Of a stretch of DNA of 64,000 nt, positions 4,962-30,145 are shown in pieces. How positions within the stretch are numbered: the stretch's first letter is position 1; the number at the start of each line of letters is the position of its first letter. The notes under the pieces are model-generated. The model had not been told where the DNA came from. It searched no databases and saw nothing but the letters and a program-made list of their open reading frames with translations. The DNA lies in assembly GCA_958295485.1 (NCBI GenBank), contig OY282354.1, forward strand, positions 2,083,417 through 2,147,416, written 5' to 3'. Origin of the DNA: an uncultured Gammaproteobacteria bacterium. GTDB lineage: Bacteria; Pseudomonadota; Gammaproteobacteria; Eutrophobiales; Eutrophobiaceae. The translations under genes and the position numbers were made by a program.

Positions 4962-5221
4962 GCCTCAACGCTATTGGCCAACGTTATTGAGATGCCCTGG
5001 TGGACATATCTTCAATAGCAGCCGGAAAGAGTGTAACGGGCCTTCGCCGGGTTTTGTCCCGTTGTACATTGTTGCGCTAACGGTATCGGCCAACTTGCCC
5101 GTGGACAGCGCCGGCTGGATATTGTTCAGCCATTACCTTATTCCTTCATAGACGATATTGCCGTCCAGGAGCGTTATCAGCGCGCCTTCATTGTAGAACG
5201 AACGGAATCGAAAACCTGGAT

Positions 5222-7501: not shown

Positions 7502-7685
7502 GATGTCGATTCCCCCCGAATATTTTTCTCGGAATTCCGAGCCTGGTCTGTTAAACTCTATAATGTGCGTAATGCGCACTATGGAACGATATACGTTCAT
7601 ATACATTAAGTGATCTCAGTTTTGATGTCAAGAAAAAAGACGTGCTGTTGCAGACAAACAACACTCAAGGTGAGAATTAATAACT

Positions 7686-9653: not shown

Positions 9654-9682
9654 TTATTTATTGACCAGGTTCACTCGTCCCC

Positions 9683-12053: not shown

Positions 12054-13423
12054 AAAATATCGCGAAATCAAATATTCAACAGCCTGTAACCCACCACTGG
12101 CATCCGATGGCCGAGCCGAAGCTGGCCGAACAGTCATCACCCCTGGTATTCGAGCGCGCGGAAGGCGTTTATATCTATGACACTGAAGGGAAGCGGTACC
12201 TGGATTCACAGGGGGGATTATGGTGCGTGAATGTAGGGCACGGACGTAAAGAAGTGAAAGAAGCCATCAATGCGCAGCTGGATCGACTCCCCTACTACAC
12301 CACCTTTGGCGACACCAGCAATTTGCCCGTCATGGAACTGGCGGAACGGCTGGCGCGTATGCTCGCGCCTGAAGGCATGCAGCGCGTTTTCTTCAGTTCG
12401 GGCGGTTCGGATGCAAACGAAACTGCGCTGAAGCTGGCCCGGCAATACTGGAAACTATCCGGTGAAGCGCAACGGTCAAAATTCATCTCACTGAAACAGG
12501 GGTATCATGGAGTGCATTTTGGCGGGACGTCCATCGGCGGTCAAATGTACCTGCGCTCGATGTACGAACCGGTTCTCCCCGGTTGTTTTCAGGTTGACAC
12601 CCCCTGGTTGTATCGCAACCCCTATTCGGATGATCCCGGGGAATTGGGGAAAATCTGCGCTAATCTGCTTGAGCGGGAGATCGTGCACCAGGGTCCGCAC
12701 ACGGTTGCGGCGTTTATCGCCGAGCCCGTACAGGGCGCCGGCGGCGTGATCGTGCCCCCGGCCAATTACTGGCCCTTAGTCAGGGAAATCTGTGATAAAT
12801 ACGGCGTGTTGCTCATTGCCGATGAGGTGGTCACTGGTTTTGGTCGTAGCGGCAGCATGTTCGGTTGTCGCGGCTGGGGCGTCAAACCCGACATTATCTG
12901 CCTGGCAAAAGGCATCAATTCCGGTTATATCCCCTTAGGCGCGACGGTGGTTAATGAGCGCGTGCGACAAGCCTGGGATGCCGATCATCCGCTGGCGGCC
13001 ATCCTGCATGGCTACACCTACTCGGGTCATCCGGTTGCCTGCGCCGCCGCCAATGCCGCCTTGCAAATTGTGGAAGATGAAGATTTGCCGGCGAACGCCG
13101 CCCGAGTGGGTAGCTATTGCCTGGCCAAATCAGAGAAGGAGTTCGCCGATTATGAATTTGTCGGTGATGTCAGGGGGAAAGGCCTGATGATGGCTATCGA
13201 GTTGGTTACAGACAAAATATCAAAAGAACCTTTCAGGCCGGACGATCCCTTTCTTGAACTTATTCAGGATTTGACGCGCAGGGAAGGCTTGCTGATCAGG
13301 AACCTGGGCTCAAACCTGATCATCTCGCCACCACTTGTTTTTACCAAAGAAAATGTTGACGAAATGACAGGCATGATCGCCAATGCTTTTAACCAGGCAA
13401 AATCAAAATTCAACAAGCGTTGA
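12050..13423 (+). CDS. class-III (omega) aminotransferase, PLP-dependent
   Basis: Motifs GGLWCVNVGHG, DEVVTGFGRSG and AKGINSGYIPLG; the Lys in AKG is the PLP lysine context. It is translationally coupled to the ligase. Confidence 0.85.
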   Translation: MKNIAKSNIQQPVTHHWHPMAEPKLAEQSSPLVFERAEGVYIYDTEGKRYLDSQGGLWCVNVGHGRKEVKEAINAQLDRLPYYTTFGDTSNLPVMELAERLARMLAPEGMQRVFFSSGGSDANETALKLARQYWKLSGEAQRSKFISLKQGYHGVHFGGTSIGGQMYLRSMYEPVLPGCFQVDTPWLYRNPYSDDPGELGKICANLLEREIVHQGPHTVAAFIAEPVQGAGGVIVPPANYWPLVREICDKYGVLLIADEVVTGFGRSGSMFGCRGWGVKPDIICLAKGINSGYIPLGATVVNERVRQAWDADHPLAAILHGYTYSGHPVACAAANAALQIVEDEDLPANAARVGSYCLAKSEKEFADYEFVGDVRGKGLMMAIELVTDKISKEPFRPDDPFLELIQDLTRREGLLIRNLGSNLIISPPLVFTKENVDEMTGMIANAFNQAKSKFNKR

Positions 13424-14756: not shown

Positions 14757-15554
14757 TCAAAAGAAGGAATGATTATTGGGTAATAACTGCCCTATTCTTT
14801 CAGCCACCTTGAATAATTCAGGCAAATATTTTTTTTCGATGTTGCTGTCGTTTATTCGCGCGACATTCCCGCCAAAACTGACCGCGGCAACAGGAATTTT
14901 TGTATCAGTATAGATCGGTACCGCAACAGTGTATAAACCTTGTTCCAACTCCCCATCGACGGATGCGTAACCTTGTTGTCTGACATGATCCAGTTCTTTT
15001 TTCAAAACGGCTTTAGTTGTGATTGTGCTCGGGGTAAAGCATTTCATCTTGACCTCGGCAAAATAAGCGTCCACGTACTCTTCTGTCTGGTTGGCCAAGG
15101 TTACTCTTCCGGCGGCGGAGACAAAAGCCGGCATATGCGTTCCCGGGTAAAATGACACACGGTCATAGCGATCGATCAGGCTGTGCGCTATGCTGATGAC
15201 GTCTAGTCCATCCATTACCGACATCACGCAAGTTTCTCCTGCTTTTTTACCGGCTTTATTGATTATCGGTTGAATCACCTGACTTACTTGCATGGCGCTC
15301 AAATAAGAGTATCCCAAATCGAGAATCCGGGGCGCCAAACGAAACCATTTGCCATCACTGACGACATAACCCAGGGCGGCCAGGGTTAAAAGAATCCGCC
15401 TGGCTGTCGCACGCGTCAGGTTTGTCCGGGTTGCCACGTCGGCGGGTGACATTTCTACATTCTCTGCATCGAATGCCTTGATGACGTCCATACAGCGGGC
15501 GATTGACCTGATGAAATCTTTTGAGTCTTCTGTGATCATCGTACTTGCCGGCAA
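14757..15554 (-). CDS. IclR-family transcriptional regulator
   Basis: N-terminal wHTH (SPADVATRTNLTRATARRILLTLAALGYV) and a C-terminal IclR effector domain (VSFGGNVARI). Confidence 0.8.
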   Translation of the reverse strand: MPASTMITEDSKDFIRSIARCMDVIKAFDAENVEMSPADVATRTNLTRATARRILLTLAALGYVVSDGKWFRLAPRILDLGYSYLSAMQVSQVIQPIINKAGKKAGETCVMSVMDGLDVISIAHSLIDRYDRVSFYPGTHMPAFVSAAGRVTLANQTEEYVDAYFAEVKMKCFTPSTITTKAVLKKELDHVRQQGYASVDGELEQGLYTVAVPIYTDTKIPVAAVSFGGNVARINDSNIEKKYLPELFKVAERIGQLLPNNHSFF

Positions 15555-15564
15555 AATGTTTTTA

Positions 15565-15850
15565 CTATGTGGGTAATGTTAATATCACTCCTTCATTTAT
15601 CAAGGCCAGGAAGAAAAGAGAGAGCGCTTCCGGGTCTGAATTGATGAAATTTTCAAAGGTCGGTTTTTCACCGGAAAGGAATAATTGTAGCATCGGGCCA
15701 ATTTGATTGATATGACAGGGAATGTCGCGCGTCTGAAAAGCCTGACGAATGCCCCGGGCCAGCCTCTCGCCAATTTCAAAAAGAAGCATATACTGGTTAT
15801 CCGCTTCCAGGTCGCGATACGTATTTATGGCGCCGATTGATGCTGCCGGG
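15565..15850 (-). pseudogene. remnant of the C-terminal end of a class-III aminotransferase (HemL/GSA-aminomutase-like), about 90 codons with no N-terminus
   Basis: Open frame ...GAINTYRDLEADNQYMLLFEIGERLARGIRQAF...INQIGPMLQLFLSGEKP...FFLALINEGVILTLPT resembles only the last quarter of class-III aminotransferases. The frame is closed by a TAA at 15871-15873. Its 5' end runs into the intergenic repeat copy at 15841..15945. Confidence 0.5.
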
Positions 15851-15945
15851 CGAAAAGGCTTTGCATACTGCTTATAAACAGGTAATATTTAACTCGATTT
15901 GGTACCAAAACCGTTAACGGGCGCTAATATTTGTCGCTGATACGC
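15841..15945 (-). repeat. copy A of the same intergenic repeat of about 100 bp (contains the perfect palindrome TTTGGTACCAAA at 15898-15909)
   Basis: The reverse complement aligns with 29138-29245. It overlaps the 5' end of the aminotransferase remnant. Confidence 0.7.
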
Positions 15946-16035
15946 ATTGCAGCCGCTCGGCATTCACTGGCGGCGTGAGCGACGCCCGCGGCGCAACGAA
16001 CACAACGCGAAACGACACAGGACCCCACGCACGCG

Positions 16036-16497
16036 ATGGATATACAAGGTGAATACCACATAGCGGCGTCACCCACCGAGGTCTGGCAACGGCTCATAGA
16101 CCCCGACGTGCTGTCGGCCTGCATCCCCGGATGCGAGTCGATGACGAGGGCGTCGGAGGATGCCTATGACTGCGCCGTCATGGCGAAGTACGGCCCCGTC
16201 AAGGCGAAATTCAAGACCACCCTGACCTTGTCGAACATCAACGCGCCCGTGTCCTACACCTTGAGCGGGCGCGGCCAGGGCGGCGCGGCAGGGTTCGGAG
16301 AAGGCGTCGCCGACGTCATGCTCGAGGAAACCAGCGACGGAACGGCGTTGCGCTATACCGCCAGGTTCAATGCGGGCGGGCGCATCGCGCAGGTCGGATC
16401 GCGTCTGATCGTGGCGACCACGCGCAAGTTCGCCGACAAGTTTTTCGCGGCCTTTTCATCGGGTTTCGATGTCGCGGCGGATGACGCGACTGCGTAA
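16036..16497 (+). CDS. coxG: CoxG-like SRPBCC carrier protein of molybdenum hydroxylases
   Basis: 153 aa, with the [19 protein letters not shown] motif characteristic of the CoxG family. Confidence 0.75.
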
Positions 16498-16553
16498 ATC
16501 ATTCGGACATAATTCGCGAGAATACAGGGCCTTTGGCCGGGGGAGGAACAACA

Positions 16554-17012
16554 ATGAAAGTCTCGTTTTCAGTCAATGGCGCGGAGCTCAGCGGGGACGT
16601 GGAACCGCGCACCCTGCTGGTTGATTTTCTCCGCAACGACCTCGGTCTGACCGGCACGCACGTGGGCTGTGACACCAGCCAATGCGGCGCCTGCGTCGTT
16701 CACTTGGACGGCCGCTCCATCAAGAGCTGCACCCTGCTCGCAGTACAAGCCGAGGGCATGCAGGTTACGACTATCGAGGGCCTGGCCGACGGCGACGCGC
16801 TGCATCCCATGCAGGCCGCATTTCGCGAAGAGCACGGCTTGCAATGCGGGTTTTGCACACCCGGCATGATCATGAGCGCGATCGACCTGTTGCAGAACAA
16901 CGCAGCTCCGACGGAAAAGGAGATCCGGGACTGGCTGGAAGGCAACCTGTGCCGATGCACGGGCTATCAGAACATCGTCAAGTCGATACAAACAAACGCG
17001 AAATCGCAGTAA
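16554..17012 (+). CDS. [2Fe-2S]-binding small subunit of a xanthine-dehydrogenase/CO-dehydrogenase-family molybdenum hydroxylase (CoxS-like)
   Basis: Cys clusters CDTSQCGAC and CGFCTPG...CRCTGY. Start is set at MKVSF, with a GGGAGGAA Shine-Dalgarno sequence 5 bp upstream. Confidence 0.85.
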
Positions 17013-17054
17013 GATCCGCCTTCGCACCCACAACCAGGCAAGAGGAAACAAATC

Positions 17055-17849
17055 ATGTACCAGTTCGATTATCAGGCGCCCGACTCGCTCGAAGCCGCGT
17101 TGGCGGCGTTGCGCGAGAATGACGAGGCGAAGATCGTTGCCGGCGGCATGACGCTGTTACCGACGATGAAGCTGCGTTTGGCGCGTCCCGAGGCGCTGAT
17201 CGACATCAACCGCATCGGATCGCTCGCCGGGGTCACGGAGAAAAACCGGGCGATCGTGATCGGCGCTATGACGCGTCATGCCGATGTTGCCGCCTCGAAG
17301 CTCGTACGGGACCGCATCCCCGGTCTCGCAGACCTGGCGGAGACGATCGGGGATCCCCAGGTGCGAAACCGCGGCACAATAGGTGGCTCTGTCGCCAACA
17401 ACGATCCGGCGGCGGACTATCCTGCCGGGCTTGTCGGTCTCGGCGCGACGGTCGTCACCGACCGCCGCGAGATCGCGGCCGACGATTTCTTCACCGACAT
17501 GTTCGAAACCGCGCTCGAGGCCGACGAGATCATCACCGCCGTGCACTTTCCGATTCCCAAACGCGCCGCCTACATGAAGTTTCCCAATCCCGCCTCGCGC
17601 TACGCTATTGTCGGCGTCATGGTGGCGGAGACCCACGACGGGATCCGCGTCGCGGTCACCGGGGCCGCGCCCTGCGTGTTTCGGGTGACGGCAATGGAGG
17701 ATGCGCTCAAGAAGGATTTCACGCCGGACGCCATCGCGCCGATCGCAGTGGACGGCGCCGAATTTAACGAGGACATTCACGCCAGCGCCGAATATCGCGC
17801 CCATCTCGTGAACGTGATGGCCAGGCGCGCAGTGGCTGCGGTGGGCTAG
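17055..17849 (+). CDS. FAD-binding medium subunit of the molybdenum hydroxylase (CoxM-like)
   Basis: FAD-binding fold [13 protein letters not shown] and [15 protein letters not shown], in the molybdopterin-dehydrogenase FAD-binding family. Confidence 0.8.
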
Positions 17850-17852
17850 AAC

Positions 17853-17882
17853 AACGGTCTCGGCGGACTCGCGACCGTTTTC
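17853..17882 (+). terminator. candidate terminator hairpin after coxGSM
   Basis: AACGGTC-13 nt-GACCGTT followed by TTTCG. The loop is long, so this call is weak. Confidence 0.25.
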
Positions 17883-17926
17883 GATGACCTACGGCCGGAC
17901 ATCGTCGTGACGGCGGTCTGCCGGCC

Positions 17927-18436
17927 TCAGTCGGCGGGCACGTGCGCGATGAGCTGTATCTCTACCAGGCCCCTGTCCGGGAACAATTCACTGATGCCGA
18001 TCGCCGTCCAAGCCGTGTACGGCGCCGGCAGGTATTCATCCTTTACAGCCATGAACGCGCCGACGTGCGCGCCCTTGTCGCCGTCGAAATGGGGGCTGTC
18101 GAAGACGTGGAAGGTCGTGAGCTTTACGACCTGATCGAATCTCGCGCCGGCAGCGGTCAGCGTCGCCTTGATCGCCGAGAAGGCCTTATGGAGACTTTCC
18201 TGGAACTCTTCCGGCGTGGCGGGATTGTCCCCCGGCGGCTCGGCCACGACGCCGGAGAGGAACAGGAAGTCGCCCGCACGGTAGGCGGGAGAAAAATGGT
18301 ATTGATCATAGAGCTCCATATCCTGGCTCGTGGCTATGATCGCCTCACCACTCGCGCCGGCCTTGTTGAAATTGTCATCCGCCGCGAGGGTTGTCGCGAA
18401 CAGCATTGCAGCTGCCATCAGTACTAATCGGTTCAT
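17927..18436 (-). CDS. RidA/YjgF-family protein with an N-terminal signal peptide (predicted periplasmic)
   Basis: Start set at MNRLVLMAAAMLFATTLAADD (hydrophobic signal), preceded by a GGGAG Shine-Dalgarno sequence. The C-terminal part aligns with the RidA fold (VKLTTFHV...EIQLIAHV). Confidence 0.65.
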   Translation of the reverse strand: MNRLVLMAAAMLFATTLAADDNFNKAGASGEAIIATSQDMELYDQYHFSPAYRAGDFLFLSGVVAEPPGDNPATPEEFQESLHKAFSAIKATLTAAGARFDQVVKLTTFHVFDSPHFDGDKGAHVGAFMAVKDEYLPAPYTAWTAIGISELFPDRGLVEIQLIAHVPAD

Positions 18437-18476
18437 CACACGCTCCCATAATAGATGCTTTTCAGATGGTTCGAGA

Positions 18477-18863
18477 TCAGGCCTTGGCGGCGATAAGCTC
18501 GACCTCGACCAGCCATTCCTGCTTCGCCAGCGCCTTGACGATAATGCCCGTGGAAGCGGGCCGCGCATCACCCAGGAACTTGGCGCGGGCCTGCGCCATC
18601 GGCCAGAAGTCGTCCTCGCTCGTCACGTAGGTCGTTACTTTGACGATATCATCGATCCCCATGCCGGCGGATTCCAGAATGGCCATGAGATTGCTCCAGG
18701 TGGCTTGAGTCTGGGCCTCGATTCCTTCGGGCATCGTGCCGTCGGGCAACAGGCCTACCTGTCCTGCGGTGTGGAGGACTCGCGAGTTTGGTGGGATCTC
18801 AATGCCGTGGCTGTAGGCTGCGACCGGCGGCGCGATCGTGTCGGGCATATGTTTCTTGTTCAT
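18477..18863 (-). CDS. RidA/YjgF/TdcF-family enamine/imine deaminase
   Basis: 128 aa: PVAAYSHG...HTAGQVGL...VKVTTYV...EVELIAA is classic RidA. Confidence 0.8.
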   Translation of the reverse strand: MNKKHMPDTIAPPVAAYSHGIEIPPNSRVLHTAGQVGLLPDGTMPEGIEAQTQATWSNLMAILESAGMGIDDIVKVTTYVTSEDDFWPMAQARAKFLGDARPASTGIIVKALAKQEWLVEVELIAAKA

Positions 18864-18954
18864 GGGACCTCCCTTGATTGTGACTGGTAAGATGATATTT
18901 TTGGGCTACTTCGCGGCGCGTTGTGGGCATCCGGCGCGGATTTTCGACCCGCGC

Positions 18955-19356
18955 TCAATCGAGCAGCGCGATGCACTCGATCTCAATCATCAGCTCCGGA
19001 AAGGCCAGGCTGGCGCAGCCGATCCAGGTCGCGGCGGGTGGCGCGGACGCCGCTTCCTCGTAGAACCCAATGCGAATGTCGTTGTTGGCTACCAGCGCCC
19101 CCATGTCGGTAGTGAAGACGGTTTCCTTGATCACGTTCTGGAAGCTCGCGCCGTTGGCTTCCAGTGTTTCCTTGAGATCAGTGTAGACCTGCTTGATCTG
19201 TGCCTTCATGTCGCCCGCGCCGATGATATTTCCCTCGGCGTCCCAGCTAACGGCGCCCGAGACGTACAACATGTTCCCGGCCTTGCAGGCCTGCGCATAG
19301 TAGATGCTTTTCTCGATGTTGGGGCGCTTGTGATAGATCTGGTTGGCTTTGGGCAT
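18955..19356 (-). CDS. RidA-family protein (third paralog)
   Basis: 133 aa: YVSGAV...VFTTDM...IEIECIAL, matching the RidA/Rid family fold pattern. Confidence 0.7.
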   Translation of the reverse strand: MPKANQIYHKRPNIEKSIYYAQACKAGNMLYVSGAVSWDAEGNIIGAGDMKAQIKQVYTDLKETLEANGASFQNVIKETVFTTDMGALVANNDIRIGFYEEAASAPPAATWIGCASLAFPELMIEIECIALLD

Positions 19357-19479
19357 GGTGATTCCTCCGAATTATCGTTCTCTCATTAACTTTGACGGAC
19401 TGAAGCGCCGGGCGGGGTCGGTGACCCCGCCCGCCCGCATCGAGAATTTACACGCGTTAGCGGCTCGCACCGGGCTTCG

Positions 19480-21960
19480 TTAGAAGTTGATGCGCAGCGA
19501 TCCCGAGAACCACCTCGGGCGATTGAAGAAGCACTGGCGGCTGTTGAAGTCCTGTCCGACATCGTAGATCTGTGTGCAGAAGAACTGATTGCCGATATTG
19601 TGGACCATAAACGCCGCCTCCCAGCGGCCGTCTTCGCTGGCATAGCTGGCGCGCGCGTTGCCGACCACGTAGGCCTCCTGCTCTCCGATGGGCGCTTCCG
19701 ATAAGAGCATGTTCTGGTCGCTACGGTAATTGAAATCCGCCTGCACGGCGAAGTGGCCCCCTAAGCCGGTGTTTTCAAACGCGACAGGCCACTGGTAGCG
19801 CACCAGGCCGTTGACGGACCACTTCGGCGCTCTCGGAAGTTCCCGATCAAGCGGCTGGGTAAACTCACGGCCAGTGTTTGGATCGGTGAACGGGAAAGTG
19901 ACGTCATAGACTTCTCCCTGCAAGTACCCCACGCCGCCCTTGAAATTCAGGCCCTCCACCGGCGAGCCCTCGATTTCGAGTTCAGCGCCGTAGATTTCGG
20001 CGTCCTGGTTGGATATCAGGTTCGCCTGGCCTTCGAAAATGAAGGCCTGGAAATCATCGTAGTCGTAGTAGAACGCGGCCCCGTTCACGCGTAAGCGGTT
20101 ATCCCACAGGGTTTGCTTGAAGCCGATTTCGTAGGCCTTGAGTATCTCTTCCTTGATCGGAACCTGCTCGGGCCTTAACGCATCGCCCACCGCCGACCCA
20201 TTGAAGCCGCCGCCCTTGACGCCACGGTTGAAAGTGAAGTACGTCAGCAGGTCATCATTGACCTGCCAGTCAAGCCCTACCTTGGCTGACCACAGGCCCT
20301 TATCGTAGACGGCGAGGTCGCCGGCTGAATCTTTGTTGTGTACGACTAAGAAAGCAGCGGGTTCAGCAGGACTCAAGAAACCTCTTGGCTCGTCGGCCGG
20401 CCAGATGTCGAGCAGATAGGTGTAGTCGATGTCTTTTTCCTCTTCGATCCAGCGGAAGCCGGTGGTCAGCGTCAACTGGGGCGTCAGGTCGAACTCGGTT
20501 TGGGCGAATATCGAATACGAATCCGTATCCTGTTCCCAGAACGCAGACGCGACGAGGATGCCCGCATCATGCGACGTGGGTTGCAGACCGCAGGTCTGGG
20601 GTAAATCTTCGAACTGCCCTCCCCCAAAGCAAGGAATTTCGAGGCCTGCCTCGCCGACCAGCGAATTAGCCGGTGATATAGAACCTACTGTTTGAGGGCT
20701 GGGCTCGGCGCCGATCGTCCCTACGTCGGAACGTAACGTGACACCCGTGCCGTAGTCGCCACGAATACGCAGGTAGTAACCCCCCGCCACCCAGCGAACG
20801 CGCTCCATCTCCCCGCTCAAACGGATCTCCTGCGAGAATTGCTCGACGTCGTTCGCCAGAAAGGTTTCCAGGACAGGAAACGGCGTGTTGTCGCTGTCCT
20901 CCATGTACTCTTTATCGACGTGGTACCAGTCGGTGATCGAGACGAAATCGAAGTTTTCGGCGTCCACATCAAGGCGGGCACCGCCGCCCCAGGTGTGCAG
21001 GTCGGAGAACCCGATGAAGTCGTGGCTTACCGTTCGTCTGCCGTCTTCCGGTTCCGCCCAACCAAAGAAATCGCAGCCGGGACAATTTACCGCATTGTCC
21101 ACCCCGGTGTTACTGGTGACTTCGTTTGGTCCTCTCACGAAACCGAATCCGGTGTCCGGATCGAAGCTGGCTGGCTGAGTGTATGCGGCGCCGTCGATGA
21201 GCTCGCTGGAAGACCCGCGGCCGTTGAGAAGGAGGCTCACGTTTTCGCTGAACTCGTATAGAACCTGTCCGCGAAACGAAGCTGTGTTATCGTCGAACTG
21301 GTCCGTTCCGACGTTGTTTGTGGCATAGGCGTCGTGCCAATTCCCTGTGCCAGAGAAGCGGACGGACATACGGTCGGTAAGACCACCGCCGATCCCGAAC
21401 TCCATACCCTTGTTATCGTATGAACCATATTTGGCTTCGGCGTACGCCTCGAATTCCTGTGACGGCTTGTTGGTGGTGAACGATATGGCGCCGCCGGTGG
21501 CGTTCCTGCCCCACAGCGTACCCTGCGGCCCGCGCAGGATTTCGACCTGCTCCAGGTCGAAGAGCTGGAAACCCGAAGCAGAGGCCTGGCTGACGTACGC
21601 CTCGTCGACATAGACCGCGGTCGGGTGCTCCTGGTGATCGGCGAAATCGACCTGGAGGACGCCGCGCACGGAGAAACCGTAGGACTGGCGGGAGTTGGGC
21701 TGCACGAGCTGCACGCCGGGCGCCATGTCGGGTACCATCGTTGTATCCAGCATGCCGAGTTGGCGAACCTGATCGCCCGACAAGGCGGTGATGGCGATAC
21801 CGACATTCTGCAGGTTCTCCGCGCGTTTCTGCGCAGTGACGACGATCTCTTCCAACACTTGCGCGCCGGCGTTCATGCCGACCAGCAATAAAGTCGTTGC
21901 AAGGATTGAGATGAGCGGTACGGAATTCGGGCGCGTTTGCCCGGATGTCTGTTGATTCAT
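19480..21960 (-). CDS. TonB-dependent receptor
   Basis: Signal peptide, then LEEIVVTAQKRAENLQNVGIAITAL and VEILRGPQGTLWGRNATGG, ending ...GSLRINF (terminal aromatic). Confidence 0.9.
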   Translation of the reverse strand: MNQQTSGQTRPNSVPLISILATTLLLVGMNAGAQVLEEIVVTAQKRAENLQNVGIAITALSGDQVRQLGMLDTTMVPDMAPGVQLVQPNSRQSYGFSVRGVLQVDFADHQEHPTAVYVDEAYVSQASASGFQLFDLEQVEILRGPQGTLWGRNATGGAISFTTNKPSQEFEAYAEAKYGSYDNKGMEFGIGGGLTDRMSVRFSGTGNWHDAYATNNVGTDQFDDNTASFRGQVLYEFSENVSLLLNGRGSSSELIDGAAYTQPASFDPDTGFGFVRGPNEVTSNTGVDNAVNCPGCDFFGWAEPEDGRRTVSHDFIGFSDLHTWGGGARLDVDAENFDFVSITDWYHVDKEYMEDSDNTPFPVLETFLANDVEQFSQEIRLSGEMERVRWVAGGYYLRIRGDYGTGVTLRSDVGTIGAEPSPQTVGSISPANSLVGEAGLEIPCFGGGQFEDLPQTCGLQPTSHDAGILVASAFWEQDTDSYSIFAQTEFDLTPQLTLTTGFRWIEEEKDIDYTYLLDIWPADEPRGFLSPAEPAAFLVVHNKDSAGDLAVYDKGLWSAKVGLDWQVNDDLLTYFTFNRGVKGGGFNGSAVGDALRPEQVPIKEEILKAYEIGFKQTLWDNRLRVNGAAFYYDYDDFQAFIFEGQANLISNQDAEIYGAELEIEGSPVEGLNFKGGVGYLQGEVYDVTFPFTDPNTGREFTQPLDRELPRAPKWSVNGLVRYQWPVAFENTGLGGHFAVQADFNYRSDQNMLLSEAPIGEQEAYVVGNARASYASEDGRWEAAFMVHNIGNQFFCTQIYDVGQDFNSRQCFFNRPRWFSGSLRINF

Positions 21961-22022
21961 GGTCAGCTATCCCCCAATGTTGATTCTGAACGGCAAAAAA
22001 ATTGATCTGGTCCTTGTCAATG

Positions 22023-22166
22023 TTTTGGTACCAAATCGATAAAAATAGTACCACTTCATCTGAATATAGCACACACGATCGGAGGAATACAACTTTTTTG
22101 GTACTTAATCGATAAAAAAAGTACCATATCGTCCGGACATATCACAAACGACCGGGGGAATACTAC
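22023..22166. repeat. tandem direct repeat, two copies of about 72 bp, each starting with a TTTGGTAC(C/T)(A/T)AATCGATAAAAA..GTACCA motif
   Basis: Unit 1 (22023-22094) and unit 2 (22094-22166) align at about 75% identity. A third, inverted partial core (TGGTACCA) is at 22213-22220. All lie in the divergent intergenic region between the receptor/RidA operon and the PQQ/coxL operon. Confidence 0.7.
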
Positions 22167-22290
22167 TCATAAGGCGCTGTATACGGACCATCGGGTAATT
22201 TTTTACTCGATATGGTACCAAAAACGTTATATACTTACGACACGACCCTGGAGGTCGCCATCTGAAAATACGCAACTGGGAGATCGAACC

Positions 22291-24213
22291 ATGAGCAATC
22301 GGCGCCTGTTACATCTGTTAACCCTGTTTGGAATCCTCTTCGCGGCGACGTCGGTGTCAGCCGATATGGAAGCGGCCCCGCCGCCGCCTCCCGGAACCAA
22401 ATTTAACGTGCTCAACAGACCGTCGGGAGAACCGAACGCCGCCGTGATCTACGCCCAACGTTGCGCCGAATGCCATGCGCGCGCCTTTTTTTCGCCGACC
22501 GTAGAACAGATGTCGAACCTGACCCCGGAAGAGGCGCACAAGGAATTGACGTGGGGCGTCATGATGGAGTTCGCCAATGGCCTGGACGATTTTGAGCGCT
22601 GGGAGTTGGCCAAGTTCGTAACCAGTTTCAAAAAAGACAGCGAAAGAGACCCGCGCGGCCACGGCGCCAAAATGTGCAAGGATAAAACGCCGCTGGTGGC
22701 CGATGCCGAGCATGACTGGCCTGGATGGTCCAAGGACAACAGCTTCCACGCGAATGCGACCAATTCGAAGTTCACCGCCGCGAGCGTGAAAAACCTCAAG
22801 CTCAAGTGGGCCGTGGGGTTTCCGCAGGTCCATTCGTTCGTTAGTGGCGGGCACAAGGTCTCCGTCGTCGGCGACCGCATATTCGTGGGTAGTCTCAACC
22901 ACTGGGTCTACTCGTTCGATGCGGACTCCGGCTGCGCGCACTGGGCGTTCCAGGCTGAATTTCGGATTCGATCGAACGTCACCGTGCGCGATGGCATCGC
23001 TGTATTCGGCGATACCGGGGCGAACGCCTACGCAGTGAACGCGGAAACAGGCCAGCTGCTCTGGCGCAAAAAAGTAGACTGGACGCCGACCTCCCGCGTT
23101 TCGGGTAACATTACGGTGCACGACGGCGTCGTCTACGTGCCCATATCCAACTACCAGGAAGTGCTCAACATGGGTGGCAGAACCCTGGAATTCCCGTGCT
23201 GTACGGCTCGCGGCTCAATCTCCGCCTTTGACCTGCATACGGGTGAGCGCAAGTGGAAGACCTATACCATCGACCAGAGATCCGAGTTTATAGGCACGAC
23301 GAAAAACGGCGTGAATCGCTATGGCCCCTCCGGCGTTACGGTGTTCTCGGCGATCACAGTCGACGACAAGCGCGGCCTTTTGTACGTGCCGACCGCGAAC
23401 CAGCAGACCGAACCGGTCATTCCCGAATCCGACTCCGTGATCGCGCTCGACATGAAAACGGGCGCCAAGGTTTGGGTCAAAGGACTGGCGCCCGAGCAAT
23501 TTGGCGGCCAGGACGTCTACCACCTGGGCTGCGAAGCGTGGGTCGATGGCGAGCGGAAAACCTGCTCGCCCTTGAACCCGAAGGGACAGGGTGACCGGGA
23601 TATCGTGGCGCCCGTTATACTGGTGGAACGATCGGACGGCAAGGAGGTCCTCATGGCCGGCTCCAAGGACGGCATGCTTTACGCGTTGGACCCGGACGCC
23701 AAAGGAGAAATCCTGTGGCAGACCCGCCTCGGCAGGGGTGGGGAAGTCGGCGGCATCCAGTGGGGCTTTTCGAGCGATGGCAAGAATGCTTACGTTCCCG
23801 TCCAGGATATGGATGCGGACATGTTGGCGGACGGCTCGTTCACGGCGGTCGATCTCCTGACCGGAAAACAAGTATGGCGCGTCGAGAAAATGACGCCCGA
23901 CTGTGAGGGTAAGCCGGCGCCGCCGTGCAGCAATGCCTTTGGCTTGCCCAGCACCGTGGCGAACGACGTCGTTTTCACGGGCTCCGCGGACGGCTTGTTG
24001 CGCGCCTATAAGAAGGCGACCGGGAAGCTGGTGTGGAGCTTCGATACGGCGCGCGACTATGAAACCGTCAATGGCATCAAGGGCTACGGCGGGGGTCTGG
24101 GCTACGGCGGGCCGGTCATCGTGAAGGATAAATTGTTTGTGACATCCGGCAACGACTATGCGCAGTTCGCTATGCCCGGGAACGTCCTGCTCATGTTCGA
24201 GCTCGACGAATAA
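22291..24213 (+). CDS. periplasmic PQQ-dependent dehydrogenase with an N-terminal c-type cytochrome domain (quinohemoprotein; polyvinyl-alcohol-dehydrogenase-like architecture)
   Basis: Signal peptide MSNRRLLHLLTLFGILFAATSVSA. A single CXXCH (CAECH) sits about 60 residues from the N-terminus. At least five PQQ beta-propeller repeats of the A-D-x-x-TG-x-x-W type follow (AVNAETGQLLW, ALDMKTGAKVW, AVDLLTGKQVW, AYKKATGKLVW). Confidence 0.75.
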   Translation: MSNRRLLHLLTLFGILFAATSVSADMEAAPPPPPGTKFNVLNRPSGEPNAAVIYAQRCAECHARAFFSPTVEQMSNLTPEEAHKELTWGVMMEFANGLDDFERWELAKFVTSFKKDSERDPRGHGAKMCKDKTPLVADAEHDWPGWSKDNSFHANATNSKFTAASVKNLKLKWAVGFPQVHSFVSGGHKVSVVGDRIFVGSLNHWVYSFDADSGCAHWAFQAEFRIRSNVTVRDGIAVFGDTGANAYAVNAETGQLLWRKKVDWTPTSRVSGNITVHDGVVYVPISNYQEVLNMGGRTLEFPCCTARGSISAFDLHTGERKWKTYTIDQRSEFIGTTKNGVNRYGPSGVTVFSAITVDDKRGLLYVPTANQQTEPVIPESDSVIALDMKTGAKVWVKGLAPEQFGGQDVYHLGCEAWVDGERKTCSPLNPKGQGDRDIVAPVILVERSDGKEVLMAGSKDGMLYALDPDAKGEILWQTRLGRGGEVGGIQWGFSSDGKNAYVPVQDMDADMLADGSFTAVDLLTGKQVWRVEKMTPDCEGKPAPPCSNAFGLPSTVANDVVFTGSADGLLRAYKKATGKLVWSFDTARDYETVNGIKGYGGGLGYGGPVIVKDKLFVTSGNDYAQFAMPGNVLLMFELDE

Positions 24214-26579
24214 TGACTGAGATTGGAAAATCTGTACGGCGTAAGGAAGACCGGCGCTTCATCACGGGCGCGGGAACATACACGAGCGATGTCCAGTATT
24301 CCGACCAGGCCTATCTCTATATCGTCCGCGCGCAAACTGCACATGCCCGGATACGCAACATCGACGCATCGGCGGCACGGGCTGCGGCAGGCGTTGTTGC
24401 CGTCTACACTGCCGCGGATCTCGATGCCGGCGGGATAGGCGATATGCAGCCGGCCTGGATCATGTACAACCCTGATGGCTCTCCAATGCATGAAGCCCCG
24501 CGTGAAGCATTGGCGCGTGAGCGCATCCGCTATGTCGGGCAGCCGGTAGCGGCTGTGATCGCTGAATCCGGTCTTCTTGCGAAAGACGCAGCCGAACTAA
24601 TCGAACCCGATCTCGAGGAATTGCCTGCCGTTGCGAACCTGGCCGACGCGACCATTGCAAATGCCCCGAAGGTTTGGGACCACATCTCTGCCAACCAATG
24701 CTTCGAGTGGATCATCGGCAATACTGAAGCGGTAGCTGAGGCATTCGCGTCGGCTGCTCGAATTGTAGAGGTTGACATCGTTCAAAATCGCCTGACGCCC
24801 AATGCGCTCGAACCGCGCGCTGTTATCGCCCTTCATGATGCGAGCAACGATGAATTTACGCTTCATGCGGCGTGCCAGAATCCACATCTTCTACGGACTT
24901 GGACGTGCGCAAATTCGTTGCCGGTTCCGGAATCCAGACTCCGGATCATTTCGGCTGACGTTGGCGGTGGTTTCGGCGCCAAGATTTATCAGTATTCAGA
25001 GGACCTGGTTGCCTTGTTTGCAGCCAAGGCTTTGGGTCGACCGGTGAAATGGGTGGCTGAACGTAGCGAAGCCTTCGTTTCCGATGCCCACAGCCGCGAT
25101 CATGTAACTCATGCCACCCTGGCGCTGGACTCCGATGGAAAGTTTTTGGCCCTGCGTGTTGATACTGATGCCAATTTGGGCGCGGCGCTATCGCAATACG
25201 GCGCCGCCATTCCTACCGTTTTCTACGCCACCATGGTTTCGGGTGTTTACAAGATTCCAGCTATCGCAATAAGAGTACGCGGCATAATGACGAATACGGT
25301 GCCGGTGGACGCATACCGTGGGGCCGGACGCCCGGAAGCGACGTATTTGGTGGAACGTCTGGTCGACCTCGCTGCGGAGGCAACCGGCATCGACCGCGTC
25401 GAGATCAGGCGACGAAATTTCATTCAGCCGTCGGACTTCCCGTACCAGACGCCCCTGGGACTCGTTTATACCGAAGGCGCGTACGATCAATGCGTCGACC
25501 GCGCATTGGAAAACGCAGACATGAAAGGGTACGACGCACGCAAGGCGGCATCACAGGCCGCCGGCAAGCTGCGTGGGTTAGGCATAATCGCGTATACCGA
25601 GCAAGCCGGCGCGGCGCCTTCCCAGGCGGCGATTGCTTTCGGCGCGGGACACGCATTTTTCGAGGTTGCGACGGTCCGGGTAAATCCGGATGGATCGGTG
25701 CGCGTCCTTACCGGCGCGCACAGCCACGGACAGAGTCACGAGACGACGTTTGCCCAAATCGTTTCGGATCAACTTGGCTTGCCCCTGGACGAGATCGAAG
25801 TAATCCACGGTGATACCAGTCAACTGCCGTTCGGCATAGGAACATACGCATCACGCTCAATCAGCGCCGGCGGCAGCGCAGTACTCCTAAGCGCCGGGAA
25901 AATCATCGCCAAGGGCAAAAAGATCGCGGCGCATATGCTTGAAAGCAATGCCGACGACATCGAATTCATCGACGGGTTCTTCAAACACAAGGATGCGGTC
26001 CATAGCATGTCATTCAAAGAAATTGCGCGCCAAGCGTATGTTCCGGGGAACTATCCATTGGAGCAGCTCGAGCCTGGGCTTGAAGAAACCACCTTCTTCG
26101 ACCCACCGAACTTCACTTTTCCTGCCGGCTGTCACATTTGCGAGGTCGAAATCGATCCGGAGACCGGCGAGACAAGGGTCGATCGTTACACCGTCTTCGA
26201 TGATTTCGGCGTGGTGATCAATCCGATGGTCGTGCATGGTCAGGTTCATGGCGGCCTTGCCCAGGGCATTGGTCAGGCGCTTCTCGAAAACGCCGTATAC
26301 GATGCCGATTCAGGCCAGCCGTTGAGCGCGTCCTTCCTTGATTACACTATGCCGCGCGCGGATGATCTGCCAACATTCGAAGTTTCGGAATTAGATGCGA
26401 TCTCGATATCAAATCCGTTAGGCGCCAAGGGCGCCGGTGAGGCAGGAACCATTGGCGCGCCGATTACCGTCATGAACGCCATTTTCGATGCGCTCAAACC
26501 CATCGGTGTCACCGACCTTTCAATGCCGGCGACACCTACAAAGATCTGGGCGGCTATTCAAGCGGCAAACACTGCCTAG
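24213..26579 (+). CDS. molybdopterin-binding large subunit of a xanthine-dehydrogenase-family hydroxylase (CoxL-like, form II motif AYRGAGR)
   Basis: 788 aa with GGGFGAK and VPVDAYRGAGRPEA motifs. The start ATG overlaps the stop of the PQQ gene (TAATG). Confidence 0.85.
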   Translation: MTEIGKSVRRKEDRRFITGAGTYTSDVQYSDQAYLYIVRAQTAHARIRNIDASAARAAAGVVAVYTAADLDAGGIGDMQPAWIMYNPDGSPMHEAPREALARERIRYVGQPVAAVIAESGLLAKDAAELIEPDLEELPAVANLADATIANAPKVWDHISANQCFEWIIGNTEAVAEAFASAARIVEVDIVQNRLTPNALEPRAVIALHDASNDEFTLHAACQNPHLLRTWTCANSLPVPESRLRIISADVGGGFGAKIYQYSEDLVALFAAKALGRPVKWVAERSEAFVSDAHSRDHVTHATLALDSDGKFLALRVDTDANLGAALSQYGAAIPTVFYATMVSGVYKIPAIAIRVRGIMTNTVPVDAYRGAGRPEATYLVERLVDLAAEATGIDRVEIRRRNFIQPSDFPYQTPLGLVYTEGAYDQCVDRALENADMKGYDARKAASQAAGKLRGLGIIAYTEQAGAAPSQAAIAFGAGHAFFEVATVRVNPDGSVRVLTGAHSHGQSHETTFAQIVSDQLGLPLDEIEVIHGDTSQLPFGIGTYASRSISAGGSAVLLSAGKIIAKGKKIAAHMLESNADDIEFIDGFFKHKDAVHSMSFKEIARQAYVPGNYPLEQLEPGLEETTFFDPPNFTFPAGCHICEVEIDPETGETRVDRYTVFDDFGVVINPMVVHGQVHGGLAQGIGQALLENAVYDADSGQPLSASFLDYTMPRADDLPTFEVSELDAISISNPLGAKGAGEAGTIGAPITVMNAIFDALKPIGVTDLSMPATPTKIWAAIQAANTA

Positions 26580-26633
26580 GGCTGGGTCGCAGGTAATTCA
26601 GAAATCGCCACCGACAGGACTCGGTTCCGGATC

Positions 26634-27320
26634 TCACCGTGGCAAGCGCGAGTCTGCTCTCGGATAAATGTGACGCCGCGCGGACCGCGACAAGTTGAAC
26701 GTCTCCCTCTCAAGTCGCTCGCTGCGAGGCATGAGCGAGTGCAGGAGCATTTCGTAGAGCTCGTGGAATGCCTCGGAGATCGTCAGGCCCGTGGAATCGC
26801 TGAAGTCAGGTTCACGCAATCGGTTGATGCTGGCGAACACGATTTCGGCGACGAACGCCGGTAGTACCTCCCGGAAGACGCCGGCCTTGACGCCGTTGTC
26901 GATAATCCGGCACATGCCGTCGATGCGCAGGCTGATGTGTTCCCGCCAAAGCGTTCGCGCCGGTTCCCATTCGTGAATGTCGGCGACCACAGCCTGGCTC
27001 AACCGCTCGGCGGCGCGCGCCCCAACCTCAAGATATTCATAGACCTGACGTTCCGGATCCAAGGTGTTATCGGTCAAATGGTCGGCTTCTTGCCTGATGC
27101 GGCTGAAAAAGTTGTCCAGGGCCTTCAGCACCAGCATCTTCTTGCTCGGGGCGAGCTCATAGAGGGTGCGCTTCGAGCACTTGAGACGCGCGGCGATCTT
27201 CGAGACATTGAGCCGCGAGAACCCCTCGGCAAGGATGAGCGCTTCAAATGCTTCGAGAGTATCTGCCCGGCGCTTGTTGATCGGAGCGCTACGGGAGTTA
27301 TGGAAGTGCATGGTCGACAT
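26634..27320 (-). CDS. TetR-family transcriptional regulator
   Basis: N-terminal HTH LNVSKIAARLKCSKRTLYELAPSKK, with a TetR-like helical C-terminal domain. Confidence 0.75.
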   Translation of the reverse strand: MSTMHFHNSRSAPINKRRADTLEAFEALILAEGFSRLNVSKIAARLKCSKRTLYELAPSKKMLVLKALDNFFSRIRQEADHLTDNTLDPERQVYEYLEVGARAAERLSQAVVADIHEWEPARTLWREHISLRIDGMCRIIDNGVKAGVFREVLPAFVAEIVFASINRLREPDFSDSTGLTISEAFHELYEMLLHSLMPRSERLERETFNLSRSARRHIYPRADSRLPR

Positions 27321-27515
27321 ATTCGAATTATATCCGAATGATTAACGCGATTCCACCGCTCGTCGTAACCCGTGAACTACTCGATCCCGGCAATGCGCCG
27401 ATTCGATATTGCGTCAACGGTGAATTGCCTCAGGACGGCAACGCGGAGCTCCTGATGTTCGATGTCCCGACTTTACGGCGTCAGCCGGCGGTAGATGTCG
27501 GCGACTGATTGGTTG

Positions 27516-29039
27516 TTATTCATACTCCTGCTCCATTTCCCGTAGTTTTGTCTTCAGCACCTTGCCGTAGTTGCTCTTGGGCAGACTGTCCACCGCACGA
27601 TAAAACCTGGGGCGCTTGAAGCGCGCGATATTTTCGATGCAGAAATTATCCAGGGACTTTTTATCAATCTTTTCGGCCGTCGATGTAACCACGTAGGCAA
27701 TGACAACCTCACCCCATTCGCGATCGGGTCGGCCGATAACCGCTACCTCCGACACGTCAGGATGCTTGATCAGGACTTCTTCCACTTCACGTGGATAGAT
27801 ATTTGTTCCCCCGGAGATGATCAGGTCTTTTGAGCGATCCTTCAGGGTCAGGAAGCCTTCCTCGTCAAAACATCCGTAATCGCCCGTGTGCAACCAGCCG
27901 TTGCGCAAGGTTTCCTCACTCGCTTCCGGATTACGCCAGTATCCGTTCATAACGCTTTCTCCCCGCACCAGCACCTCTCCCACTTCCCCTGTGGGAAGCC
28001 AGTCCCCTTCCGTGTTGGCGACGCGTACCTGGACTGCGCTCTGTGGCGTGCCCACCGATGAAAGCCTCTGGCGCCAGCGGGGATGATCTTTCTCTGCATG
28101 TATGCGCGAACTCAAGGCGGTGATGGTCATGGGGCTCTCCCCCTGACCGTATAGTTGCGCGAGCTTTGGTCCGTATCGTTCCAGTCCGGCAAGACAATCC
28201 TCCAGATACATGGGACCGCCGCCGTAGATAATGGTTTTCAGGTTGGTGGTGTCGGTATCGACCGGATGATCCAGCAGTCGTTTCACCATGGTCGGGGCGG
28301 CAAAAAATACTGCGGCGGGCCAGGATTCGATCAAGTGATAAATCTCTTCAACATCAAATCCACCGGTTTCCGGGATCACGTGACAACTTGCCTGCATGAC
28401 ATGGGCGAGCGCATAAACACCTGAACCGTGGCTCATGGGCGCCGCATACAGGATTGCCCGCCAGGGAGATTCCTGGTCGACATCCGCAAAATAACAAAAC
28501 GACGTGGCAAGCAGGTTGCGATGACTGAGTACCGCGCCTTTTGGTTTGCCCGTAGTGCCGCTGGTGTAAAACAACCAGGCGGGATCCCGTGGTTCGCGGG
28601 AAACCATGGGTAAAGGATCACATTCAAATAACCGCTGATAATCCCGGGCGGAAACGTCAACGACAGCTTCGAGCGTTTCCCCCGCAAGCAGGGGAGCTAT
28701 GGTCTCGACGAGAGCGCGCGTGGCAAAACAGAGCTTTGCCTGGCTGTTTTCCAGGATATAAGCGAATTCGTTTTGGTGAAATTTGGCATTGACCGGTACG
28801 GTGACCAGTCCTGCATGCCAGCACGCATACAGAATCTCCAGATACTCCGGGCAATTACTCATCGCCAAGACGACGCGATCTCCCTGCTCGAGTTTGAAAT
28901 GCCCGGTCAATGCGAAGGCGAGACGGGATACGCGTTCCGCCATTTCACTGTATGTTCGCAAAACCGTGGAGCCTTTTGCTATAGCAGGATACTCCGAGAA
29001 AGCGCTCCCGGATCGTTGCATGTGTATCGCTATGTTCAT
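27516..29039 (-). CDS. AMP-dependent acyl-CoA synthetase/ligase
   Basis: Motifs FYTSGTTGKPKGAVLSH and YGQGESP, about 507 aa. Confidence 0.85.
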   Translation of the reverse strand: MNIAIHMQRSGSAFSEYPAIAKGSTVLRTYSEMAERVSRLAFALTGHFKLEQGDRVVLAMSNCPEYLEILYACWHAGLVTVPVNAKFHQNEFAYILENSQAKLCFATRALVETIAPLLAGETLEAVVDVSARDYQRLFECDPLPMVSREPRDPAWLFYTSGTTGKPKGAVLSHRNLLATSFCYFADVDQESPWRAILYAAPMSHGSGVYALAHVMQASCHVIPETGGFDVEEIYHLIESWPAAVFFAAPTMVKRLLDHPVDTDTTNLKTIIYGGGPMYLEDCLAGLERYGPKLAQLYGQGESPMTITALSSRIHAEKDHPRWRQRLSSVGTPQSAVQVRVANTEGDWLPTGEVGEVLVRGESVMNGYWRNPEASEETLRNGWLHTGDYGCFDEEGFLTLKDRSKDLIISGGTNIYPREVEEVLIKHPDVSEVAVIGRPDREWGEVVIAYVVTSTAEKIDKKSLDNFCIENIARFKRPRFYRAVDSLPKSNYGKVLKTKLREMEQEYE

Positions 29040-29137
29040 ATCCGGCCAGTCAAAACGCTGGACCTCGATCTAACGATGCGTTCATTGCTTTTGGGTGTTC
29101 GATCAGAATTTCCTCTTGTCGGTCGTGCGGGTCAATG

Positions 29138-29245
29138 GGCATAAGCGAATACTATTAGCGCTGACTAAGGTTTATGGTACTAAATCAATTTAAATATTAC
29201 CTGCTTATAAGCAGTATGCAAAACCTTTTTGTCTGGCAGCATCCC
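29138..29245 (+). repeat. copy B of an intergenic repeat of about 100 bp (TATTAGCGC...TGGTAC.AAATC..TTAAATATTACCTG.TTATAAGCAGTATGCAAA.CCTTTT...GGCAGCATC)
   Basis: Aligns at about 85% with the reverse complement of 15841-15945. Confidence 0.7.
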
Positions 29246-29443
29246 TGCGTCCCGGTTGTCGGTCGCCCGAGTGACTCGCGAACGCCCTTAAACCGGCATT
29301 CCGGGGGTAACCGCCTCGAACAGGATCAGGCTTGGAATATGTAGAATTGTGTAGAGGTCTGCGGGGAGCCGGGAGATGATGCAGATAACTGGTTTGTTAC
29401 CGGCGATGTTGCGACAATTGATCCTGTGCGTTGCGCTCAATCA

Positions 29444-29482
29444 TCCTTGCATATTTAATATTGAATATTAAATATGCAAGGA
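29444..29482. promoter_or_regulatory. 39-bp perfect inverted repeat TCCTTGCATATTTAATATT-g-AATATTAAATATGCAAGGA
   Basis: Exact 19-bp arms around a single central base, 110 bp upstream of the TraR/DksA-type gene. It is a candidate operator or cruciform. Confidence 0.5.
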
Positions 29483-29592
29483 AAATAGAAAAGTGGACTC
29501 ATATGGAATATCGTAAATATCAGCAGGGACAAATTCGCGGTTTCATGGTTAAATATTGTTCATTGGCAACAGCAAACCCGGAGGAAAACACC

Positions 29593-29859
29593 ATGGCTGG
29601 CGGTTTCACCAAAGACGGGGCAGTCCAGGACCAGATCGATGCGACCATCGAAGATGCGGTAAAGAACGCCCGCAGTCGCCTGCCGCAAGGGGCAAGTCTT
29701 GCTGAATGTGAAGCCTGTGGCGATGACATACCCGAAGCGCGTCAGGCCGCCATTCCGGGTGTCCGCTTGTGCGTAACCTGCCAATCCGAACGGGACCAGG
29801 CGCAGGAGCAGTTCAGCGGATATAACCGCCGGGGTAGCAAGGACAGCCAATTGAGGTAA
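29593..29859 (+). CDS. TraR/DksA-family C4-type zinc-finger protein
   Basis: CEACGDDIPEARQAAIPGVRLCVTCQ four-cysteine finger. Start is set at MAGGFTKDG, with a GGAGG Shine-Dalgarno sequence 8 bp upstream. The track's longer ORF uses a TTG inside the palindrome. Confidence 0.7.
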   Translation: MAGGFTKDGAVQDQIDATIEDAVKNARSRLPQGASLAECEACGDDIPEARQAAIPGVRLCVTCQSERDQAQEQFSGYNRRGSKDSQLR

Positions 29860-30145
29860 GTCAGGCAGGCGCTCGACCCGCCAAATTCCTTCCAAGATCA
29901 AGGATGCCTGATCACATCCTGGGATCGATTAGATATGATACTCAACCGGCGTGAAAGGCCGCTTCTAACCCGCGTATCTAACCAATCCGCTTTTCATCAA
30001 CGGAAAATTATTTTCTATCAATGAGTTACAGTGATTATATCACTTTATTTCTATCACAGTTTGAAGCGTGAAATCATTGAAGATATTTTGCATGAGATGC
30101 TTGTGTCCTATGGACTGCAACCAGTTAAGACTGTCTGATTTCGCG

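Follow-up and report, generated by a model that had tools for sequence, protein, structure and literature searches.

A 26-bp inverted repeat, GGTA(A/C)-N16-GTACC, occurs at five sites in a genome segment of an uncultured Gammaproteobacteria bacterium (GenBank assembly GCA_958295485.1, contig OY282354.1, positions 2,083,417–2,147,416; this stretch of 64,000 nucleotides is referred to as the window). It is most likely the operator of a regulator of the TetR family whose gene belongs to the cluster (26634–27320, minus strand), because sites with the same 16-nt spacing follow homologs of this protein across differing gene neighbourhoods. The five operators, distributed over four promoters of which one carries a duplicated site, are predicted to tie the four operons of the 15.8–29.2 kb region, which lie behind P1, P2a/P2b, P3 and P4, into one local regulon.

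The initial annotation had described these sites as intergenic elements built around a 12-bp palindrome, and all of the copies that it listed exist. TTTGGTACCAAA is found exactly at 15898–15909 and 22024–22035, with one mismatch at 22211–22222 and with two mismatches at 22097–22108 and 29173–29184. As a 12-mer it shows a modest excess, with seven matches at up to two mismatches in the 64-kb window against 2.4 expected. The additional two-mismatch matches at 24673 and 33222, together with an exact TGGTACCA within the receptor gene at 20921, all lack the extended core and are read as chance occurrences. When the five copies were oriented towards their downstream genes and aligned, a conserved core of ~32 nt emerged, GGTAMTWTTTWWMTYGATWWRGTACCAWAA, whose skeleton is the 26-bp inverted repeat. 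This repeat has five distinct sites in 64 kb against 0.08 expected, a number reached in none of 100 shuffles, and a position weight matrix of the 32-nt core run over the window returned the same five sites and no sixth. All five are intergenic, lie 67–140 nt upstream of the four operon starts, point at their own operon and are confined to one 13.4-kb cluster. The functional unit is the 26-bp repeat, which is larger than the 12-bp palindrome; TTTGGTACCAAA corresponds to the arm nearer the gene, lengthened so as to form a palindrome. When one mismatch to the operator was allowed, extra matches appeared in the window at 9266, 9932, 52504, 53564, 56421 and 61210, and with ~3.6 expected by chance they are inseparable from background.

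The P1 operator, GGTAATATTTAACTCGATTTGGTACC, occupies 15881–15906 on the plus strand, with the conserved core running to 15912, and is located 130 nt upstream of coxG (16036). The two P2 operators lie on the minus strand: P2a, GGTACTATTTTTATCGATTTGGTACC, at 22027–22052 is 67 nt upstream of the start of the TonB-dependent receptor gene (21960), and P2b, GGTACTTTTTTTATCGATTAAGTACC, at 22100–22125 is the second copy arising from a tandem duplication, with a decayed proximal palindrome. This duplication, which doubled the P2 operator together with upstream promoter-like sequence, had been reported as a 72-bp unit at 22023–22166; it is real, with a corrected period of 73 bp and a corrected extent of 22023–22167 (two copies, 80% matches). 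It is specific to the window, related loci L006–L008 having a single P2 copy, and represents a recent local duplication. The P3 operator, GGTAATTTTTTACTCGATATGGTACC, at 22194–22219 on the plus strand is 72 nt upstream of the start of the pyrroloquinoline quinone (PQQ)-dependent dehydrogenase gene (22291), and the P4 operator, GGTAATATTTAAATTGATTTAGTACC, at 29176–29201 on the minus strand is 137 nt upstream of the AMP-ligase start (29039). The initial annotation had correctly placed the sites in promoter regions, but it had assigned the site at 15881–15906 to an IclR gene, whereas this site faces coxG, and had put the 29-kb site upstream of a TraR-type gene, whereas it faces the AMP-ligase gene (27516–29039, minus strand). 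Two small features were also seen around P3: a candidate second operator with one mismatch (22214–22239), which overlaps its downstream side, and a small hairpin in its leader (22243–22257, CGACC-CTGGA-GGTCG), whose stem is kept in L001 and L005–L008 with a loop of 4–5 nt.

The assignment to the TetR protein comes from its homologs. Thirty homologs of the cluster regulator were aligned, and metagenomic loci were then fetched by protein similarity alone with three peptides, one of which was the recognition helix. The resulting set comprised 73 loci (484 kb; TetR identity 32–69%; G+C content 0.53–0.77) and contained 65 exact GGTAC-N16-GTACC sites, compared with 0.475 in shuffled sequence. Fifty-nine of these sites, one in each of 59 loci, fall in the 400 nt upstream of the TetR gene, and the remaining six precede a neighbouring TonB-receptor gene by ~100–200 nt. 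No site was found in any other position. A histogram of the spacing between GGTAC and GTACC in these loci showed sharp peaks only at N16, at N4 (an inner third box) and at −4 (GGTACC itself). In some loci the divergent neighbour of TetR encodes an AMP-ligase, in others an acyl-CoA dehydrogenase; because the neighbouring genes vary, the TetR protein is the common factor. The arms are invariant over 28 distinct close and 52 distinct distant sites, but they are fixed by the search pattern, and the real evidence therefore resides in the number and placement of the sites against chance, which fits a protein-binding site. Among the homologs of intermediate identity, those of loci L023 and L024 have a pair of sites ahead of the TetR gene, of which one shows an ATTACC arm as in the window lineage (in L023 at 1568 and 1806). 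In L021 (58% identity), two one-mismatch sites at 18241–18286 share a central GGTACC upstream of a hydantoinase/oxoprolinase-like gene; they lie 8 kb from TetR and were rejected as too weak to use.

The regulator itself matches the Pfam families TetR_N and TetR_C_27, and its AlphaFold model adopts the canonical TetR fold (predicted local distance difference test score of 86). Its recognition helix bears the motif CSKRTLY, which is conserved to at least 90% among the homologs. A sequence search of the PDB gave a best match of E = 3.5e-8, largely over the N-terminal DNA-binding region, and returned no characterised close relative. The structural neighbours of the model, the nearest solved folds including PfmR, FadR, AibR and FasR, are at most 21% identical, and no NCBIfam subfamily model passed its threshold, the KstR model scoring 18.9 bits against a cut-off of 280.

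Comparison of orthologous promoters, which had been proposed as a check, showed that the sites are kept at the same promoters in related Gammaproteobacteria metagenome-assembled genomes (MAGs). A strict 30-nt pattern was scanned over the GTDB representatives (one genome per species), for which our own estimate of the chance expectation is about nine matches, and it returned seven loci, six of them in Gammaproteobacteria MAGs. In all six genomes, covering three complete chromosomes (OZ252091.1, OZ220714.1 and OZ242169.1) and three large contigs, every strict match precedes the gene for coxS, the TonB receptor, the PQQ dehydrogenase or the AMP-ligase, and no match was found elsewhere in these chromosomes and contigs. 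The sole strict match outside the Gammaproteobacteria, in a KSB1/Deferribacteres MAG (L003), is neighboured by multihaem cytochromes with no TetR homolog and was set aside as chance. A matrix scan of the related loci also recovered neighbouring operators. Sites are thereby present at P1-type promoters in L004 and L007, at P2-type promoters in L006, L007 and L008, at P3-type promoters in L001, L002, L006, L007, L008 and L012–L015, and at P4-type promoters in L008 and L010. The close lineage provides 32 sites, 28 of them distinct, with the consensus GGTAaTaTttta.T.gattTgGTACCa.aa, and the core is alignable between promoter classes while the flanks are not. Marine relatives (G+C content 0.45) keep the cluster, with a TetR protein about 72% identical, and as many as four GGTAAT-N16-GTACC sites are spread over two divergent intergenic regions of each cluster. 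The TetR gene is kept in the cluster throughout L008–L015. By these comparisons the element is a conserved, local, promoter-associated site and not a dispersed repeat.

We infer the working of the operators from sequence, and this applies to binding, stoichiometry, repression, promoter positions, effector and co-transcription alike. In the absence of inducer, TetR would sit on each operator. Two dimers probably bind one operator, as with QacR, because the arms lie 21 bp apart centre to centre, approximately two helical turns, a distance that a single dimer is not known to span in TetR–DNA structures. In the distant loci, the inner GGTAC box combines with one arm into the palindrome GGTAC-N4-GTACC of 14 bp, and the remaining arm makes a third half-site; by analogy with QacR on its 28-bp IR1, this points to two dimer sites that overlap. 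The window lineage has a conserved T-G-A (mostly TCGA) in place of the inner box, and its proximal arm is lengthened to TTTGGTACCAAA.

The operator may also contain part of the promoter. The GGTAAT arm, present in 27 close-lineage sites, is on the gene-distal side wherever the neighbouring gene is in view, and T3, A4 and T8 of the operator are nearly invariant and spell TAATAT or TACTAT. The gene-distal arm (GG-TAATAT or GG-TACTAT) thus looks like a sigma-70 −10 hexamer of the TAnnnT type, and at P1 and P4 a TTGCAT is found 16 nt upstream of this −10-like element. If the distal arm is the −10 element, the operator would cover about −14 to +12 and bound TetR would exclude RNA polymerase.

The genes behind the four promoters outline a plausible pathway. 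The P1 operon (16036–17849, plus strand) encodes a coxG-like protein, a [2Fe-2S] small subunit and a flavin adenine dinucleotide (FAD) medium subunit of a molybdenum hydroxylase (coxG-S-M). The P2 operon (17927–21960, minus strand) consists of the TonB-dependent receptor gene (19480–21960), in whose product Plug and beta-barrel domains and nothing further were detected, followed by three RidA-family genes. The P3 operon (22291–26579, plus strand) encodes the PQQ-dependent dehydrogenase (22291–24213), with a weak cytochrome c match below threshold, and the molybdopterin-binding large subunit coxL (24213–26579). The P4 operon begins with an AMP-binding acyl-CoA synthetase (27516–29039, minus strand), the AMP-ligase, and probably ends with the TetR gene, which lies downstream as the last gene. 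The proposed enzyme route runs from uptake through alcohol oxidation and aldehyde oxidation to CoA activation. A pathway intermediate, plausibly the acid or acyl-CoA from the co-regulated ligase, would release TetR, and the four operons would be induced together; an acid or CoA ester is a plausible effector in view of this route, the acyl-CoA enzymes encoded beside the homologs and the acyl-CoA-responsive nearest folds. TetR is probably autoregulated, since its gene lies downstream of the AMP-ligase gene behind P4. The distant homologs have a site directly upstream of the TetR gene.

Gene content varies among the relatives. coxG (16036–16497) lies between P1 and coxS in the window; in L004 and L007 it is missing from this position, and coxS directly follows the operator. 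In the marine loci L013–L015, coxG stands alone behind an operator of its own and diverges from the AMP-ligase operon. The marine P4 operon (L012, 530–6306; also L010, 3–1361) has three extra genes ahead of TetR, which are not at the corresponding position in the window and which, from reading their translations only, we take to encode a 454-aa permease-like membrane protein, a MoxR/CoxD-like AAA ATPase and a CoxE-like von Willebrand factor A protein. L001, a 5.8-Mb relative, has three PQQ-dehydrogenase paralogs and a truncated coxL fragment among at least five insertion-sequence transposase genes (1–9900), and the operator (18729–18760) is present only at the PQQ-dehydrogenase paralog with a full-length coxL behind it.

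Several points weigh against the assignment of the element to TetR or against parts of the proposed working. The invariance of CSKRTLY is partly built into the sampling, the helix peptide having been among the fetch queries. In L016–L022, whose TetR homologs are 55–69% identical, no exact site was present in the available sequence upstream of TetR. The inner operator differs between the two lineages, a GGTAC box in one and T-G-A in the other, and the arm and spacing architecture is the only part common to both. Genome-wide absence of further sites was judged from relatives, with a pattern that recovers only some half of the known sites. The promoter assignment is weak: the hexamers match poorly (TTGCAT 3/6 and TAATAT 4/6), and a consensus scan did not list them and instead placed TCGATA-17-TATACT around the P3 palindrome; under either assignment the operator would overlap core promoter elements. 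The window lineage has no operator directly upstream of the TetR gene, the 195-nt gap (27321–27515) being without a site, so that autoregulation depends on assumed co-transcription across this gap.

The similarity between P1 and P4 goes beyond the operator. The initial annotation had recognised an inverted element of about 100 bp at these positions; it is real and measures 111 nt, at 81% instead of the ~85% given. Its left arm (15839–15949, plus strand) is the P1 promoter cassette and its right arm (29133–29243, minus strand) the P4 cassette, the two being 81% complementary, with similarity beyond the operator extending over ~40 nt upstream and ~35 nt downstream. The P1 cassette consists of the −35-like TTGCAT (15860–15865), a palindrome CTGCTTATAAACAG (15868–15881), the operator and the shared downstream stretch; in P4 the palindrome is the perfect CTGCTTATAAGCAG. 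The upstream stretch common to both thus holds TTGCAT and the palindrome CTGCTTATAA(A/G)CAG (15868–15881 and 29201–29214), which directly adjoins the distal arm of the operator, in the interval from the −35-like TTGCAT to the −10-like TAATAT. L007 has CTGTTTATAAACAG here, a symmetric double change that preserves this second palindrome. The palindrome, which may be bound by a second regulator, was not found in the marine relatives or in L010. Cassette similarity is also seen across species, between P1 of L007 and P4 of L008. One promoter–operator cassette, present in two inward-facing copies, makes up the 111-nt inverted pair. Elsewhere, L005 has a P3-type cassette (5620–5699), 94% identical to window 22186–22265, before an AMP-ligase with no TetR downstream, and in L010 (1442–1500) the P4 operator has P3-like flanks downstream. 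These swaps indicate that promoter cassettes are exchanged between operons.

From this material it could be argued that the cassettes of ~110 nt (−35 element, palindrome, operator and leader) are the evolutionary unit, being copied and passed from operon to operon, and delimit a relocating, transposase-less island of 13.4 kb, which would move between genomes by recombination at the inverted cassettes. The argument draws on the homology that ends at the cassettes, the truncated gene at the left end, the G+C step and the swaps in L005 and L010, and we consider it unlikely. The truncated gene, an aminotransferase remnant that the initial annotation had rightly noted, is a 74-aa open reading frame (ORF) with its 5′ part missing (15565–15789, minus strand); it stops ~50 nt short of the P1 cassette's outer end, and its translation presumably corresponds to the C-terminal end of a class-III aminotransferase. 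Across this junction the G+C content rises from ~0.49 to ~0.61, and the remnant and the step together suggest a rearrangement or insertion boundary.

A separate reading takes the cluster for a mobile island of 13.4 kb bounded by the 111-nt inverted repeats, with the inner copies as by-products and the similarity stemming from mobility instead of regulation; it appears quite improbable. Nucleotide homology between the window and L007/L008 does break off close to the outer arm ends, to within ~10 nt (at 15848 and 29250, the arms ending at 15839 and 29243), the flanking genes differ in every genome, G+C content is ~0.58–0.63 inside the cluster and ~0.50 in the flanks, and the truncated aminotransferase gene abuts the left end. 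However, no transposase or integrase domain was detected in any of the 12 ORFs searched (16036–29039), and there is no target-site duplication, the left flank ending in gccgatt and the right flank starting with tgcgtcc. The termini differ by genome, homology in L004 reaching 29266 and L010 lacking the cassette flank. The shared core is also found inside the cluster, always facing a gene, and in the marine relatives two cassettes lie back to back in one intergenic region. The flank swaps in L005 and L010 fit gene conversion among paralogous promoters.

Recognition by another regulator, either the neighbouring IclR protein (14757–15554) or an unlinked GntR/FadR-type protein binding the TGGTACCA palindrome, is very unlikely. 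The IclR gene, PcaR/PcaU/PobR-like, is divergent from P1, and GT-N-AC cores are typical of GntR-family operators. The IclR gene nevertheless lies outside the cluster in a lower-GC flank beside a truncated gene, as does the DksA/TraR-type gene (29431–29859) in the flank on the other side, and tblastn found no IclR homolog beside the coxS- or coxG-facing site in L004, L007 and L013–L015. A domain search covering the cluster ORFs found no GntR domain, and the GntR/FadR likeness raised by the initial annotation was drawn from the 12-bp palindrome alone, which is one arm of the 26-bp unit. The 26-bp N16 architecture tracks TetR homologs across differing neighbourhoods and is predicted by neither protein; of the two adjacent regulators that had been offered as binders, it is thus TetR that is borne out at the homolog loci, and IclR that is absent beside the site in relatives.

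That the core is a miniature inverted-repeat transposable element (MITE)-like repeat, as had also been considered, a transcribed RNA element (leader hairpin or riboswitch) or an alternative-sigma promoter would agree with a multi-copy, AT-rich element with inverted arms in constant orientation to genes, but is extremely improbable, as the copies are limited to the promoters of one cluster and, under the strict pattern, to the same positions in the six related genomes, always facing a gene; the core matches no Rfam family (an Rfam scan of the whole window gave no match at the gathering threshold); the arms taken as a stem give 5 bp and a 16-nt loop with no variation and hence no sign of compensatory change; the sigma-54 (GG/GC spacing) and extracytoplasmic function (ECF; −35/−10 spacing) consensus sequences do not fit on inspection of the five aligned copies; and the cluster encodes no ECF sigma or anti-sigma factor.

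The system is most likely a TetR-type repressor of a catabolic cluster, a case of ordinary bacterial regulation, and belongs to a TetR subfamily for which we found no characterised member. It resembles the TetR repressors that respond to acyl-CoAs or pathway intermediates (Thermus PfmR and FadR, Bacillus FadR, Myxococcus AibR, and Mycobacterium KstR and FasR) in having a TetR_N helix-turn-helix and an all-helical ligand domain, in being encoded in or beside the controlled genes near acyl-CoA synthetase or dehydrogenase genes, and in using inverted-repeat operators in several promoters of one pathway. Unlike them, the cluster TetR is at most 21% identical to any solved or named member. To our knowledge, GGTAC-N16-GTACC matches no published operator of PfmR, FadR, AibR, KstR or FasR, and a literature search by sequence word and gene combination found no paper on such an operator, yielding cloning primers and unrelated papers only; this search was incomplete, and an earlier description is possible. 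Like QacR (28-bp IR1) and EthR, whose long operators are bound by at least two dimers, the system has a 26-bp operator with arms approximately two helical turns apart. Unlike theirs, this operator is asymmetric, with three strong half-sites instead of four, and has no sequence relation to their operators, and the two proteins are distant fold relatives only. The peg operon of Sphingopyxis, which encodes a TonB-dependent receptor, an alcohol dehydrogenase, an aldehyde dehydrogenase and an acyl-CoA synthetase under an AraC-type regulator, follows a similar logic of outer-membrane uptake, conversion of alcohol to aldehyde to acid, and CoA activation, the difference being the PQQ and molybdenum enzymes of the window cluster.

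Assignment of the element to TetR pairs an uncharacterised TetR subfamily with a predicted operator, GGTAC-N16-GTACC. Members of the subfamily share the CSKRTLY helix and are found in marine and further uncultured Gammaproteobacteria as well as in metagenome contigs of high G+C content. The operator links a TonB receptor, a PQQ dehydrogenase, a molybdenum oxidoreductase of the CoxSML type, an acyl-CoA ligase and RidA proteins as one predicted inducible unit, which helps to explain what this cluster, so far known from metagenomes alone, may do; the ligand of TetR would name the substrate. The pair also offers a compact predicted repressor–operator system for synthetic biology, and the understanding of gene regulation itself is unchanged.

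Other features of the window are unrelated to the operator. A 34-nt direct repeat (4238–4271 and 29935–29968, 82%) has one copy just 3′ of the DksA/TraR-type gene, and the copies of a 64-nt inverted repeat (12783–12846 and 60858–60921, 77%) lie 48 kb apart. The segment 57001–64000 has a G+C content of 0.38–0.44, compared with 0.50–0.60 elsewhere in the window, and may have been acquired separately.

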